From an uncultured bacterium (GTDB taxonomy: Bacteria; Babelota; Babeliae; Babelales; JABCYS01), in NCBI GenBank assembly GCA_963705705.1, contig CAVPKK010000007.1, forward strand, positions 96,001 to 160,000: a stretch of DNA of 64,000 bases. Direction: 5' to 3'. The position numbers were made by a program. Every line of letters starts with the position of its first letter. Within the stretch, counting starts at the first letter, position 1. Positions 57,001 through 63,000 of the stretch are shown here, one piece after another.

Positions 57001-60000
57001 ACGATCTGCTAGTAAGCAAACGCAATGCATGATGGGAAGCATATTCAGCGTGACAATCTGATAAGCAATACACATAATGAGGTTTGCCGTTTTCACCTTT
57101 GTTTTCCAAAATCGTCATCTCCAGCAAAATCGCATTGCTATAGCTTGCTGAAATGAGTGTCAGTAAAAACAACAATTTTTTAATTTGTATCATGAGTATC
57201 CTTAAATAGATTAACCGTGCTGCAAGCGATTAATTTCCCGATTAATGCCGCTCACTATTGGTTCCAATAAGAAGTTAACCGTAACCGGCTGGCCAAAGTA
57301 TTGGATTTTTGGCTTGGGATCAATTGCAGTGACCAACATTTTCACTAAAGCAACAATGTCTTTGGTATACGGTTGCGTTTTGATCAATTGTAGCGCATGC
57401 AAAATCGGCATTTTTGCGCGGTCCAATTTATGTTTGGTGGCAATCGTTTGAAGTTCGGTAAGTTGGTCAATAAGAATCTGTTTTTTAATTTGATCCAACT
57501 GAGCTGCCATTCTAGTTTGAACGGGGCTTGAAGATGGTGCCTGCTCGCGTTCTTTCTGCTCGACGGGCGGTTTTGGCGCCACTGGCCGATCAATAGCTAA
57601 AATGCGTTCAGCGATGTCTGCCGGTATGCGACGTGGATCTGCATAGTCATTCACAATCGCAGCGAGATCGGGAATTAACATTTGGCTAATTTCACCGTTC
57701 AACCCGATGAGCGCATTCTCTTGCTCATGCACAAAACCTTTTAAGCGGTAAAGGAATTCAGTATTAATTTTTGGATTCTTTTCCAAGTATGAAAGCATGC
57801 CGCGGCTTAACTGGAATACCAATGAATTTGGAACTGCATTTATTGATAAAAGAATTCCAAGCTTTTCGCCGCATTTAAGGCTATACACGAAATGTTCAAA
57901 AATCTTGTTGAACCGGCTCCCATGAGCATAGAATCCGAACGGATAGTTCCAATTAACATTAACTGGTGTTTGGGCAAATGCCTCAGCAATAACCCGTAAC
58001 ATTTCTGGCGTACCGTATTGCATTGCTGTCATGAGGAGTTGTTTCATTTGTTCATCGGATCCAAGTTGATATCTGCCATCATCAGGAAGACGAAATATTC
58101 TCGACGTTGCTTGGAACAGTTTTTTTGCAATCGCATCATACCGTTCAAGATTCGGCTTTTCTGGAATGCCAAAAAAATTCAAAAACTCATCAGCACAATT
58201 GGTTTTAATAAGATTGGAATACATAATGAGTTTGGTAAGCGCATTCTTAATTGAACTCACTATTCTATCAACATCTTGTTGAGTTCCTCGACTGTTATAA
58301 TGAAGATCACTGATCATTGCATCAAGTAAAAGATCGACAATCTCTTCATGACCACCAATTGTTGCTAATGATAATGGATCAATCATATCAGCTAAAGAAA
58401 CAAGCCATTCAGGGGAATGTCGAAGCCCGTCTAGTAACTGGCCAAACGGTTTGTTAGTTAAAGAATGGTACCAGAGATTTTCAACTAACTTATCTTTGTT
58501 CATCTGCGATTCTAGTGCTTGCTCATTAATGGTGATTTTTCTACTTACCGTCGTTGAGTCAAATCGTGGCTGAGTAAATAGAAAAGCTTTCTGGGCAAGG
58601 AGCAACTCGACGATCCTTTTGTCGCCACGTGCAGCGGCACGCATTAATGTGGTAAAGCCATTATTAGTAAAGCCATTATTTATACGACGATGCCACATCG
58701 ATATCAAATTATCCAATCGAGGGCCACACTTTCTCATAAATTTCGCGGCTTCAATACTTGCTTCGTTCATATAGGTAGATAATGTTGAACAATTCGCCCG
58801 TAGTTGCATTAATTGCGCATTAAGCTGACCTAATTTACTTTTAATTTCTTCTATGTCGGAAGCAAAAAGATTTCGTTCTATCAAATTAGGCACCAATGAA
58901 ACATAATCAGGTGCGTCAACTTGTACTAATTTTTTATCTAGCAGTTCTTTGTATTGGGCAGCAGTTAGTGTCCCTTTCTGAATACCAATGAAGGGTATGG
59001 AATCGATAGCATATGATGATGGGTCAATTATTTGGGCTAACAGATCGGCTATATTTCTTTGATGGTATTCATCATGACTAGGCCCCATTTCGATAAGGCG
59101 GCAGTCAACAACAAGTTTTCGGTACATAGCAACTGCGCGACTCGCTGCTGCTTCGCTTTCAGTTACTGGACGCGGCACGCTGCTCGCCTCGAGCTGTTTT
59201 TCTTCCTCTACTTTTGCAAAAGAACGTGGATCGCCAATGGCATAGCTAGGCGAGGAGCTCGCGGAAATTGATACCACAAAAAGAGTGGAAACGGCAAAAA
59301 TTGCTACGCTCACCAGTAATTTGAAAATAAATATGCCGACAAGAAGACCAAAAGAACAGCAAAAACGATTAGAAATACGACAACACGGATTCATAATAAC
59401 CTCCATCAAGTCCGTTCTACGGACGAAGCCTCGCCGAAGCTCATTGCCTATAAGATCTAACCACAAGCAAAAGCGTAGGCGGGCAAATTTTAGGCACGTA
59501 CCCATTCAAGGTACGTATTCCTTCGAAACATATTCCATTTGAATGACTTAAGTATTGTATTAGAGCATAATCTGGCCGTCAAAAGGCTGGAGGCGCATTT
59601 TTGGTCAAAAATGGACAGGCAAAGAGCTAACTATAGCCAGACTCAGAGCCAATATTGCCTATTTTTTACGAGCTCAGCTTTTTCGCAAAAAATCAATGGT
59701 TTCTTTTCTATATGTGCAAAATGGCCGGGTCAATGCGCTCTCTATTGTTACACGGTGGCAATTTTTGGACGTTTCGGCACTAGTTTTTAAGGAAAAAATG
59801 GGCTGATTTTTGATGTTTTCAATGGCATGGGGTCAAATTTCAATATGGTTATTCGCCCATATACTTACAGGCAACCAGTGAAAAAAGGTCCATAATTAAG
59901 GCCTATGATCGAGTTTGTTATCGAGCACTTTTATATACCGCGCAAATCCGGTACATTTAATAGTAATTAATAAGCCGGGTCTTGGGGGAATTTTAATGGT

Positions 60001-63000
60001 TCACAGATTATCATGGTATCTAACAGCCATTGTGTTAGCCGTTCCATTAATCGCGATTGCGCCTGATACAGATATATCAACGGATGAGTCTGCTGCCGAT
60101 GATATTCCTTCGGCGGAACTGGTTGTCTCCTTCAATCAATCGGTAGATGAAAAATTTGTAGAAGATGCAGAAAATTCTCGAGCCCCAAAATCTAGAAATG
60201 CCATATTCTATGCGATAGCAGCCGGTGATTTGGAAGCGGTGCGACAAATTATTATTTTTGATGAGGATGCACTTAATAGAGCATATGAATATAAAGCGAC
60301 TGAAAAATCCTTCGATGGCTTTCATTCAAGCCCCTATAATGGCGATACGCCACTCATCTATTTAGTAAAGACCATCATTGATCTGCACAAAGCATATGAC
60401 TCAAGAAAATTCTCTGATGAATTCACTATCCAACTAGCATTCGAACATCGCTTTACTTTGGTATCTGAGATCTTATTTCATCCCAAAACAATCAGCTCTG
60501 GTGAAAATGCCGATGGACATACGGCTGTTACCTTGGCCGCCCAGGCCGGGCTTGTACGGTTGGCAAACTTGCTTAGCAGCGGAACTCATCCTGCACCCAA
60601 GCAAACTGACGTTAGCCAATTCAAAGCACGGTTAGCAAAATTGGATGTGTCAGCTGAAGTGCGCAAGCGCATTAATGCAGAAATTGATGTGCTCGGCCAA
60701 AAGCATCCGGCTGAACGTGGTTTGCAGATTAATTTCATCAATGCCTTATTGGATTTGCCCTGGGACAAAACAGCTGATACCGCCGTCGACATTGCTACTG
60801 TGCAAGAAGCGCTTGAATCCGAGCATTATGCGTTGAAGAAAGTTAAAGACGCGGTACTTGATTATCTTGCGGTCGCATCGGTGAGCCAATCTCTTGGGAA
60901 AAGCAAAATAATCTGCTTAGTCGGCCCGCCTGGAACGGGTAAAACATCGGTTGTGCAATCAATTGCTCGAGGGCTTAATCGACCATTGGCAAAAGTATGT
61001 CTTGGCGGTGCACATGATGAATCGGTAATTCGCGGGCACAATAAAAGTTATATCAGTGCCACGCCCGGTGAAATTATAAAAGGCATTATTCACGCCAAGG
61101 TAAGAAATCCGGTCATTCTCTTAGATGAAATAGATAAAATTGGGACCAGCCAATATAACGGCAACCCTTCATCTGCCCTACTCGAAGTGCTTGATCCCGA
61201 ACAAAATCATTCATTCATCGATCGCTTTGTCGAAGTACCATTCGATCTTTCAGAATGCCTCTTTATTGCTACTGCCAACTCTAAACGAGAAATTCCTCTG
61301 CCATTGTTGGATCGCTTAGAAATTATTGAAGTGCCTGGTTATTCTTTGGAAGAAAAGGTACAGATTGCGCAAAATTACTTGGTACCCAAAATAATACGGG
61401 AAGCAACATCGACTGAGCTAATTTTTGACATTGGCGAGGATGTAATTCGCTCGATCATAAAAAATTACACATTCGAATCTGGGGTGCGCAAATTGACGCA
61501 GCATCTGAAAACCTTATTTGCCAAGACGGCGCGGCAATATCTAGACAAGCGAACGGTGCCGATCATCACTCCGGAAAATCTTACGGAATATCTAGGACCT
61601 TCATTTAATTTCCCCCGCCTCTCACAGGCGCCGGCAGTGGGCATTGTTAATTGCTTATCAGTTTCACCTGGTTTCGGCGGAGCAACCAGCTTTTTGGAAG
61701 TGGTGTTGGTACCAAATGGAAAAGGTGATTTAAAGGTTTCCAAAGTGCTTGAAAATGATAGTGAAAATGCTGCTGCCATTGCACTGGCCTATGTTCGTTC
61801 ACATGCACAAGAATTAGGTATTTCAGCTTCGCAGCTTTCTTCAAACGATATTCATGTGCACAAACCTGGTATTGGACATGTCGACGGCCCTTCTGCCGGT
61901 ATCGCCAATGTTACAGCCATGGTATCTGCCTTCACCAATAAACTATGTGATCCAACTTATGCTATGACTGGAGAGCTGAGCTTGACCGGTAAGGTGATGG
62001 CCATTGGTGGATTGAAAGAAAAGATTTTGGCGGCCAAGCGTGAAGGCATTAAGAAAGTTATTATCCCGCGTGAGAATGAATCGGAATTATATGATTTTAA
62101 GCAGTTGCTCGATGGTATTGAGATTATACCAGTCAGTGATGTGCGCGAAGTATTAAGTAAAGTTTTGTTACCGAATTCAAGAAAAAGGTAAGTCGATGAT
62201 GATTACAAGAATAGCTTCTTTAGCCCTTCTGCTAAATATTTGGACCTTACAGGCATCTCCGGTGGTTGCACATAATTTACCGATTAGAAGTTCTAATCAA
62301 AAACTCACGCCAACGGAAATGCTGGCGGTCGGTATTATTACTGCATCACCAAGCTTGGTTGCAACGGCAATAAAGAAAGGCGCCTACTTGCGCGTGCAGA
62401 TAGATCAGTTTGGTGATACACCACTGATGCTTGCCATTCGTGTGTTTGGTCATTCATTGAAAACGCAATTGGAAGCAAAATCAAGCCGTTTACAGAGACT
62501 CTGCAGTTTTGCTTCTGGATTAGTTATTTCCCAATTGCTCATGTGGCAAGGCTCTAAATTTATACCAGACAGATGGCAATCGGCGTATAACATTTTCAAT
62601 CTTGCCGCGCTCGTCGGCCCTGTTGGCTATTATGCCCGTCAATCAATGAAACCCACAATCGCTACCCAACGCGCCGCACGCATTATTCTTATGCTGATGC
62701 AGCAAGATCCTCAGATGAGCCTTCGCAATCATGAAAGCCTCACACCAAAGGATATCCTTGAAGCGTTTTATCCTATCGCCCGTACGCTGCAAAGTGAAGA
62801 ATGGTTTACTTTGCGACGAATCTTCTCGCAGTTGAATGTTGGGTAATCTAAAATTTAGTCACTTCAGTCTAAATTGAGTCTTGAAAGCTTTGATTCCTTA
62901 ATGTTGATGATTAAGTCTCCTCAGCGCTCATCCTGCATGTCCGCCAAAGCTCATGGAGTTGTAGAAATTCTTACTGACGCAAGGAGACCGCGCTCATCCT

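Follow-up and report, generated by a model that had tools for sequence, protein, structure and literature searches.

A predicted extracytoplasmic Lon-type protease of Babelota with an export-type leader and an ankyrin domain in place of the LON head

AAA+ proteases that are tied to the membrane by hydrophobic segments, such as LonB, whose membrane helices lie within the AAA+ module, and FtsH, which has two N-terminal helices, have their motors in the cytoplasm. The periplasm is held to be without ATP and hence without ATP-dependent chaperones and proteases (review PMC7053576), and lon appears among the cytoplasmic proteases in the part of PMC6561590 drawn on here. For LonA, Tzeng et al. (PMC8087443) described AAAP, the core of M. 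taiwanensis LonA (MtaLonA, residues 242-793) without the NTD, which degraded casein and did not degrade unfolded Ig2. ATP/ADP translocases have been reported in all TM6 genomes studied, and parts of a type II secretion system (T2SS) have been assigned to the TM6 core (PMC4776705). In Dependentiae, signal-bearing ankyrin proteins are usually taken to be host-directed effectors; in C. destructans, signals were reported on 78% of the ankyrin proteins and vesicles were seen (PMC6561590). No description of a Lon that combines such a signal with an ankyrin head was found in the literature searched.

The gene described here (P0001; 59996..62191, on the + strand, as are all features given below) lies in a window of 64,000 nucleotides, the whole stretch of DNA that was analysed, which spans positions 96001-160000 of contig C7. 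On the basis of ORF reading, Pfam and TIGR00763, it encodes a LonA-type protease of 731 aa, hereafter AnkLon, and a Shine-Dalgarno-like GGGGGA (59984..59989) was read directly from the sequence 6 nt upstream of its ATG. The start of the LonA alignments marks a short linker and a LonA-derived helical pre-AAA region (residues 204-300, including LPWDK; 60605..60895), which is followed by the AAA+ module with its lid (60896..61555) and the Lon_C (S16) protease domain (61565..62167), both delimited by Pfam and alignments. Pfam placed AAA (PF00004) at residues 306-444 (4.9e-22), Lon_lid at residues 477-519 and Lon_C (PF05362) at residues 524-724 (4e-49). The motor residues, which we take to be Walker A (GPPGTGKT, 310-317), Walker B (D377/E378), the pore-loop tyrosine (Y352) and two conserved arginines (R440 and R498), were invariant in alignments of 6 and 30 sequences, while the S633/K676 dyad was invariant in the 6-sequence alignment and present in at least 90% of the rows of the 30-sequence alignment, where the exception was a C-terminally truncated fragment. 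LON_substr_bdg (PF02190) was absent from AnkLon, with no Pfam match at E values up to 1, whereas it was found in both of the further LonA genes of the same genome, G000 (130.8 and 114.1 bits). The survey's finding that this third Lon paralogue has kept its motor and protease intact while its LON N domain has been replaced was thus borne out: the motifs that it quoted are present and invariant in the 6-sequence alignment, and a leader and an ankyrin domain stand where the LON domain would be.

The match to TIGR00763 was confined to AnkLon residues 202-724 (model positions 251-795), with a score of 547.7 bits that is below the NCBIfam equivalog cut-off of 608.05, and solved LonA chains aligned to residues 204-727 only. 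Among these, the 4ypl chain aligned from its own residue 8 and, judged from the matching residue range, probably is the AAAP construct. The LonA part kept in AnkLon (residues 204-731) is predicted to be a self-sufficient chamber, and from the colinear match to hexameric structures we infer that it would form a hexamer and carry out ATP-dependent proteolysis. In the Lon tree, the AnkLon branches are long. Assignment of AnkLon to the LonB type was considered and rejected, since a Kyte-Doolittle (KD) scan detected no transmembrane helices inside the AAA+ module and since the matches of TIGR00764 and TIGR02902 were confined to the protease part and scored far under the cut-offs of these models.

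Upstream of the LonA part, AnkLon contains a degenerate ankyrin domain of 3-4 repeat units (approximately residues 66-200; 60191..60595), recognized by Pfam and profile searches, with a two-helix insertion that follows the GDTPLIY unit. AnkLon itself scored below the Pfam Ank_2 cut-off of 27.3 bits, with 18.6 bits for the whole protein and 22.6 bits for the first 250 aa; the latter score had been stated when ankyrin-like repeats were proposed for this region. Despite this, the predicted ankyrin domain is secure, because orthologues pass the cut-off and a profile of the domain matches solved ankyrin chains, so that the earlier proposal was strengthened. Four of the six metagenomic family members were above the cut-off (P0152, 37.1; P0153, 42.1; P0017, 35.1; P0027, 29.8), and a distant member, G254, has textbook ankyrin repeats (153.1 bits); P0002, G007, G171 and P0063 were below it, with 23.8-25.8 bits, and P0154 had no Ank_2 match. 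When a profile of four AnkLon ankyrin domains was compared with the PDB, 200 sequences matched at E values up to 1e-3 (best 3.6e-12), and the best 60 of these 200 were ankyrin or DARPin chains. The ankyrin-domain profile gave 13,655 matches in a representative protein library, at the top of which were giant proteins hit in 10-29 stretches. Furthermore, hhalign aligned the AnkLon ankyrin domain with the textbook repeats of G254 at 98.4% (E 7.9e-15).

The first 23 residues (59996..60064) were identified by a hydropathy and charge rule as a Sec-type leader, in which the n-region MVHR precedes a 19-residue uncharged run, then A-I-A with Pro at +1. The leader is the sole 19-residue window with a KD value of at least 1.5, and past residue 29 no window reached 1.4 except for a marginal one at residue 70. 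It is followed by an acidic low-complexity linker (approximately residues 24-65; 60065..60190), defined by charge count, in which orthologues align poorly; the 30 residues next to the uncharged run include 9 acidic and 1 basic. The leader rule was passed by all 11 AnkLons, by 1 of 21 housekeeping Lons of Babelota and by 1 of 17 other Lons, the last being a false hit on a LON strand. In the 10 members other than G254, the n-regions have 1-5 K/R but lack D/E, the uncharged runs span 12-22 residues, which is signal-peptide length, and the 30 residues that follow comprise 4-11 acidic and 0-3 basic ones. The Sec-type leader reported by the survey is therefore a conserved feature with an export-type charge pattern, which predicts an N-in, rest-out topology with everything past the leader translocated. 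The export call was made with our own rule rather than a trained predictor, and the same rule flags 371 of 1078 frames in G000, so that a leader alone is weak evidence.

Pro at +1 is unfavourable for cleavage by signal peptidase. Direct reading of the leaders gave a canonical small-x-small site with a non-Pro next residue in 9 of 11 AnkLons, for instance V-V-A|S, V-Q-A|H, V-F-A|D, V-H-A|D and L-T-A|D. The Pro residue in G000 and the result that signal peptidase I (S26) was not found on searching that genome would suit a protein whose leader remains uncleaved as an N-terminal anchor, with its bulk in the cytoplasm as in LonB and FtsH and with the ankyrin domain recruiting cytoplasmic or membrane substrates. 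Such a protein would not require ATP outside the cytoplasm, and membrane-anchored AAA+ proteases are common. However, the charge pattern in the 10 members, basic before the run and strongly acidic after it, is the reverse of that required for this orientation, the uncharged runs have the length of signal peptides, the KD scan revealed no second membrane segment, and 39 of 41 genomes from the order, G099 of the same genus among them, have signal peptidase I. We therefore consider a cytoplasm-facing anchor improbable.

A second gene (62196..62846), which the survey did not mention, starts 4 nt past the AnkLon stop codon, and the sequence AAAAAGG overlaps that stop. It appears to be co-transcribed and translationally coupled with AnkLon. 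ORF, profile and hydropathy analyses indicated that its 216-aa product is a signal-bearing, split-ankyrin protein, with a signal-like leader, one or more ankyrin units, a hydrophobic middle and a further ankyrin unit. This partner was found downstream of AnkLon in all five loci (that of G099 being split over two contigs); where the junction is visible, in four loci, the two genes are separated by -4 to +9 nt. It was present in all four f1 genomes, the ones with this type of Lon, with one weak match among 257 other genomes. In the KD scan, three of the four partner copies had two hydrophobic peaks; the hydrophobic middle of the G000 copy is weak, with one peak of 1.31.

The match to G007 quoted in the survey (AnkLon residues 70-726, 40% identity, 698-aa frame) was reproduced, but AnkLon is not restricted to one family of Babelota as had been claimed, since G254 belongs to another family and six further members were found in metagenomes. 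Signal-bearing Lons without ankyrin repeats also exist: P0175, the sister of the AnkLon clade in the tree, and, adjoining housekeeping clade 1, L035 of G159. Both share a Sec-type leader and an intact LonA-type core with AnkLon; the N-terminal module of P0175 is an orphan 250-aa domain, and L035 is a two-motor Lon with a second helical-plus-AAA+ module. No partner gene was seen beside L035 in G159.

A rival reading follows the survey in having AnkLon act on host proteins. AnkLon would be delivered into the host, through Sec export followed by the type II system or outer-membrane vesicles, and would assemble in the host cytoplasm or vacuole, where it would use host ATP to degrade host proteins chosen by the ankyrin domain. 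Several observations are consistent with this. In this phylum the hallmark module for interaction with hosts is the ankyrin repeat, and the signals and vesicles reported for C. destructans point the same way (PMC6561590). G000 encodes three secretins, one T2SSE ATPase and a GspG-type pseudopilin, in line with the place of T2SS parts in the TM6 core (PMC4776705). AnkLon adjoins an island of six ankyrin genes and a zf-MYND gene, the six signal peptide-then-ankyrin genes being directly upstream, and the long branches would fit fast effector evolution, as the canonical small-x-small sites in most leaders would fit export. On the other hand, beyond Sec no secretion signal could be read from the sequence, a ring of ~470 kDa would need to be put together once its subunits had crossed, the strictly co-occurring partner resembles a bacterial membrane protein in its leader and hydrophobic middle, the G000 leader has Pro at +1, and a host target for AnkLon is not known. 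Delivery into the host is, in our estimation, rather unlikely.

AnkLon probably acts outside the bacterial cytoplasm, where free-living bacteria are without ATP. We tentatively prefer to read it as an AAA+ serine protease of LonA descent that leaves the cytoplasm through Sec and resides in the periplasm of a bacterium that lives as a parasite inside protist cells and imports ATP. Action in the periplasm is no less likely than action on host proteins. The objection that AnkLon would need the host cytosol for its ATP is weaker than the survey held, because a parasite that imports ATP must have ATP in its periplasm, and G000 encodes three TLC (ATP/ADP translocase) frames. After translocation, AnkLon would fold and form hexamers fuelled by ATP on its way across the periplasm to the translocases of the inner membrane. 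The ankyrin domain would take the role of the LON head, either picking folded substrates or docking an adaptor, and the partner, presumably a paralogue of this domain with a hydrophobic middle, could tether or regulate the protease at the membrane. Weighing against a periplasmic AnkLon are the dependence of the export call on our own permissive rule, the ankyrin/zf-MYND neighbours together with the usual view of signal-ankyrin proteins as effectors and the long branches, and, in G000, the weak partner middle and the lack of a detected signal peptidase I.

It is also conceivable that AnkLon is exported without being fuelled by ATP and serves as a protease or holdase that does not depend on ATP, in the manner of exported proteins of the Lon_C-only or LonC type, with the AAA+ module merely scaffolding the ring. 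A periplasm without ATP (PMC7053576) would favour this, and the N-truncated MtaLonA core still cleaves disordered casein (PMC8087443). The invariance of both Walker motifs, the pore-loop Tyr and the two conserved Arg across fast-evolving members would be hard to explain without ATP turnover, however, and ATP is imported through the periplasm of this organism, so that we regard this alternative as very improbable.

An energy parasite with ATP import removes the basis for the textbook rule of an ATP-free periplasm, and the conservation of an intact Lon that bears an export leader suggests that this opening was exploited in evolution. An exported and active AnkLon would allow extracytoplasmic ATP-dependent proteolysis to be studied in a tractable test case, and would also be a natural example of the retargeting of Lon by exchange of its head for a repeat-protein binder; were it injected into the host instead, it would be unusual among effectors as a self-contained unfoldase-protease. 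Other P-loop ATPases in G000 have similar leaders. A wider and doubtful extension is that Babelota run an ATP-powered extracytoplasmic proteome, in which host ATP crosses the periplasm and whole classes of ATP-driven machines have moved out, with AnkLon as the first bacterial periplasmic ATP-dependent protease. These machines might include AnkLon and its partner, the two-motor Lon, a single-leader FtsH-like protease, a four-module AAA+ protein and MutS-like ATPases, and such a periplasm would resemble the intermembrane space of mitochondria, which has the i-AAA protease and Skd3.

Among known systems, LonA (M. taiwanensis LonA, the Lon of PDB 7p6u, MEROPS S16) shares with AnkLon the AAA+ module, lid and Lon_C dyad at 40-45% identity, colinear from the pre-AAA helices to the C-terminus. 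The LON head is missing from AnkLon, as are LonA's flexible linker and conserved coiled-coil stretch; a leader and an ankyrin domain occupy their place, and AnkLon is predicted to be extracytoplasmic. Unlike LonB and FtsH, it has no hydrophobic segment besides one N-terminal leader, and is predicted to be on the opposite face of the membrane. With the secreted ankyrin effectors of Dependentiae it has in common the order of signal peptide and ankyrin repeats, the commonest effector-like layout in the phylum, whereas no ATP-dependent protease is among the effectors described in the part of that study drawn on here (PMC6561590). AnkLon is also like human CLPB/Skd3 in layout, an AAA+ disaggregase of the mitochondrial intermembrane space, which according to the portion of PMC9934407 used here also has a targeting signal, a hydrophobic stretch, an ankyrin domain of about four repeats, the second of which is followed by a two-helix insertion, a linker helix and an AAA+ ring, and which works, like AnkLon at its proposed site, between two membranes where ATP passes through. 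Skd3 carries a ClpB-type NBD2 but lacks a protease domain. The likeness is one of architecture alone and presumably convergent. By this analogy, the predicted topology of AnkLon is a bacterial counterpart of that of ATP-driven machines within the intermembrane space of mitochondria, and, if AnkLon is exported and active, the convergence with Skd3 would be striking.

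Within the window, which covers C7:96001-160000, the AnkLon gene (59996..62191, plus strand, 731 codons) begins with an ATG located 6 nt after a Shine-Dalgarno-like GGGGGA, and Pfam recognized Lon_C (residues 524-724, 4e-49), AAA (306-444) and Lon_lid (477-519) in its product, with no LON substrate-binding domain found. A wrongly chosen start codon was ruled out by the Shine-Dalgarno-like site and by the leader, which was kept in all 11 members of the AnkLon family. Scans for promoters and terminators gave no signal above shuffled sequences at the gene, and no Rfam families, tRNAs or inverted repeats were found around it. 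The NCBIfam LonA model covered only residues 202-724 (model positions 251-795) with 547.7 bits, which is below its cut-off of 608.05, and the colinear alignment with solved structures began at residue 204. The best PDB match was 7p6u (2e-120; chain residues 249-777), MtaLonA chains matched at chain residues 245-773, and the 555-residue chain 4ypl aligned from its residue 8. Walker A, Walker B, the pore-loop Tyr and two conserved Arg were invariant in alignments of 6 and of 30 sequences, while the Ser-Lys dyad was invariant in the former and found in at least 90% of the rows of the latter, the exception being a C-terminally truncated fragment. With these motifs invariant, and with the two further LonA genes of the genome both carrying a LON domain, the survey's finding of a third Lon that has a complete motor and protease and lacks the LON domain holds. 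We are nearly sure that the AnkLon gene is genuine and under selection, and that its product is an active Lon-type machine headed by ankyrin repeats.

According to passages of Tzeng et al. (PMC8087443), the head of MtaLonA (residues 1-206) is attached via a flexible linker (211-243), and AAAP, the MtaLonA core without the NTD (residues 242-793), still degraded disordered casein and hardly degraded thermally unfolded Ig2. We infer from the matching range that 4ypl is the AAAP construct. Because the LonA-like part of AnkLon corresponds to the AAAP core, which is active without the NTD, AnkLon retains a self-sufficient chamber, and the part that was swapped out is the substrate-selecting part of LonA.

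AnkLon itself scored 18.6 bits with Ank_2 over its full length and 22.6 bits over its N-terminal 250 residues, both below the Pfam threshold of 27.3, and the ankyrin head proposed earlier from this score is now borne out, at the level of sequence comparison, by family members and profile matches instead. Ten members with an AnkLon-type N-terminus were gathered first: four from one Babelota family, f1 (the genome with the window, G099 with protein P0002, G007 and G171), and six metagenome proteins (P0017, P0027, P0063, P0152, P0153 and P0154). Ank_2 was above threshold in P0152 (37.1), P0153 (42.1), P0017 (35.1) and P0027 (29.8), slightly below it (23.8-25.8) in P0002, P0063 and the G007 and G171 members, and not found by Pfam in P0154. 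A profile of four AnkLon ankyrin domains had 13,655 matches among representatives at E <=1e-3, the top ones being giant proteins matched in 10-29 stretches. Against the PDB it matched 200 sequences, and the 60 of these that were listed were ankyrin or DARPin chains (best 3.6e-12). Atlas features agreed with ankyrin, yet stayed under the 0.9 line. The eleventh member, from the 52% complete genome G254, has textbook ankyrin repeats (Ank_2 153 bits) at the same position in the protein, and the degenerate type is colinear with these repeats and one repeat shorter (hhalign 98.4%, E 7.9e-15, 186 columns). On this alignment, the AnkLon domain is predicted to contain three or four repeat units, the GDTPLIY unit being followed by an inserted pair of helices. 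Since G254 belongs to a different family from f1, the supposed restriction of AnkLon to one Babelota family had to be given up. A search for related loci matched nothing but the record of G099 and a single metagenome locus, and P0002 was the sole match in a word search with the AnkLon N-terminus. We also observed in genome G067 a free-standing 252-aa protein (L069:1501-2259, plus strand) that has canonical ankyrin repeats after a signal-like leader and matched the AnkLon N-terminal profile at 9.3e-13. A module of this type could have been fused to Lon.

The leader was called by our own rule, under which 371 of the 1078 long frames of the genome count as leader-bearing; this frequency is in line with that of Chromulinavorax, in which 44% of CDS are signal-bearing according to a passage of PMC6561590. 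The rule was positive in 11/11 AnkLons, in 1/21 housekeeping Babelota Lons (the two-motor Lon of genome G159) and in 1/17 Lons of other bacteria, the last being a false match on the first LON strand. In the ten members gathered first, the n-region contains 1-5 Lys/Arg and no acidic residue, the uncharged run that follows spans 12-22 residues, and the next 30 residues contain 4-11 acidic versus 0-3 basic residues. This charge pattern predicts that the N-terminus is inside and all else across the membrane, and a hydropathy scan found no second hydrophobic segment in AnkLon. A membrane anchor that leaves the protease facing the cytoplasm is unlikely, because basic residues before and acidic residues after the leader predict the opposite topology. 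Several other candidates were rejected: a lipoprotein, as the leader has no lipobox Cys; Tat export, as it has a single Arg and no twin-arginine motif; and a LonB-like anchor, as no transmembrane helices lie inside the AAA+ module. At the candidate cleavage site, Pro comes directly after A-I-A. Queries with PF10502, TIGR02227, PF00717 and the enzyme of G099 did not detect signal peptidase I in the genome, and G171 was likewise without a match. The S24 matches are not signal peptidases, one being UmuD-like and the other XRE-S24 repressor-like. The enzyme is present in 39 of the 41 genomes of the order, including G099 of the same genus. As the genome is 96.4% complete, the simplest reading is an assembly gap. 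Taken together, we consider it probable that AnkLon is exported.

The partner gene (62196..62846, plus strand, 216 codons) starts 4 nt past the AnkLon stop, which is overlapped by AAAAAGG. It also lies downstream of AnkLon in G007 (0 nt gap), G171 (4 nt overlap) and the metagenome locus L048 (9 nt gap), followed directly by lepA in all three. In G099, a contig end falls between the two genes, and lepA again follows the partner. A 115-aa ORF with a GIY-YIG nuclease domain (54.7 bits; 63438-63785, plus strand) lies between the partner and lepA in the window, a position at which relatives have no ORF. The partner profile was present in 4/4 f1 genomes, which count as one lineage and not as four tests because these genomes are kin. 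Among 257 other Babelota genomes it had a single weak match (4.8e-7), and no partner-type neighbour was found beside the AnkLon gene of G254. The partner starts with a signal-like leader, and ankyrin-like units occupy its two ends (hhalign against AnkLon N-domains 94.7%, E 6e-8), and its profile also matched the AnkLon N-domain of G007 at 8e-9. Its first Atlas match (0.95) was to ankyrin families. Of 71 PDB sequences at E <=0.01, the 60 listed were mostly ankyrin-repeat or DARPin chains, the remainder of those listed being TRPV3 channel chains and latrotoxin, matched through their ankyrin parts. Three copies of the partner have two peaks in their hydrophobic middle, and the window copy has a single weak one (KD 1.31). 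We read the partner as a putative paralogue of the AnkLon head that would sit in a membrane, and it may bind AnkLon.

If AnkLon is exported, its motor may depend on ATP outside the cytoplasm. The genome has three ATP/ADP translocase frames, and passages of PMC4776705 describe such translocases in all TM6 genomes studied; we infer that the imported ATP must cross the periplasm. Similar leaders were found on other P-loop ATPases encoded on other contigs of the same genome (loci L051, L053, L056, L057, L054 and L052), namely three MutS_III/V-like proteins, a 1214-aa protein with four AAA modules, an 848-aa AAA+/Peptidase_M41 FtsH-like protein in which only one segment is hydrophobic and the AAA module does not start until residue 431, and a 300-aa kinase-like protein. 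An exported AnkLon that acts independently of ATP is quite improbable in our judgment. We tentatively favor the reading that AnkLon works in the periplasm, because the periplasm is the certain first destination of an exported protein, the partner seems to be bound to a membrane, the ring is a large one and the cleavage site is poor. The genome also encodes an Omp85 protein, three secretins, one T2SSE ATPase and a GspG-type pseudopilin, and therefore a route past the outer membrane exists. Delivery into the host, to which we give a somewhat lower probability, draws on these type II secretion parts, on ankyrin repeats as typical of host interaction, on the fast evolution of the AnkLon clade, and on an adjoining ankyrin and zf-MYND island. 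In this region, seven consecutive genes are located upstream of AnkLon on the minus strand (46720-59505). Six of them have ankyrin matches, three above and three below the Pfam cut-off, and one encodes a 400-aa protein ending in a eukaryote-type zf-MYND finger (38.8 bits). The region looks like an inserted effector-like island because gyrA occupies this position in relatives.

In an unrooted quick IQ-TREE analysis of the core (50 rows, 527 columns), the 11 AnkLons and the metagenome Lon P0175 formed one side of a branch (SH-aLRT 96), with long branches within the AnkLon clade, and together with one of two housekeeping Babelota Lon clades they formed a group of 23 rows (100). This grouping is consistent with a Babelota Lon that was duplicated and then had its head exchanged. 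An AU test (p-AU 0.20, LG+G4) on 33 of the 50 rows, which left out 1 row of housekeeping clade 1, 5 rows of clade 2 and 11 other Lons, did not reject a separate origin of the G254 fusion. A recent foreign origin was rejected, as the GC content of 0.39-0.49 matches the flanks and the tree places AnkLon with a housekeeping Babelota Lon clade.

Searches of open PMC papers and bioRxiv yielded neither a Lon described as having ankyrin repeats or an export signal nor any work on Lon in the phylum Babelota; a passage of Deeg et al. (PMC6561590) places lon among cytoplasmic proteases. Two other Lons bear comparison. P0175 (777 aa), sister to the AnkLon clade, combines a leader, which follows an alternative start, with an orphan 250-aa N-domain without detectable relatives, and its active-site motif is DGASAG. 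The 938-aa Lon of G159 (family f19; L035:274-3090, plus strand), which directly follows a housekeeping Lon, has a leader, no LON head and two tandem helical-plus-AAA+ modules before Lon_C, the first with ILENID as Walker B. The closest functional parallel to AnkLon is human CLPB/Skd3. According to passages of PMC9934407, Skd3 is located in the intermembrane space, has a targeting signal and a hydrophobic stretch, and continues with four ankyrin motifs, the second of which is followed by two inserted helices, and with a linker helix and an AAA+ ring; its ankyrin domain is described as required for activity and higher-order assembly. The insertion is comparable to the one predicted after the GDTPLIY unit of AnkLon. 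By analogy, the AnkLon head might pair rings, as in Skd3.
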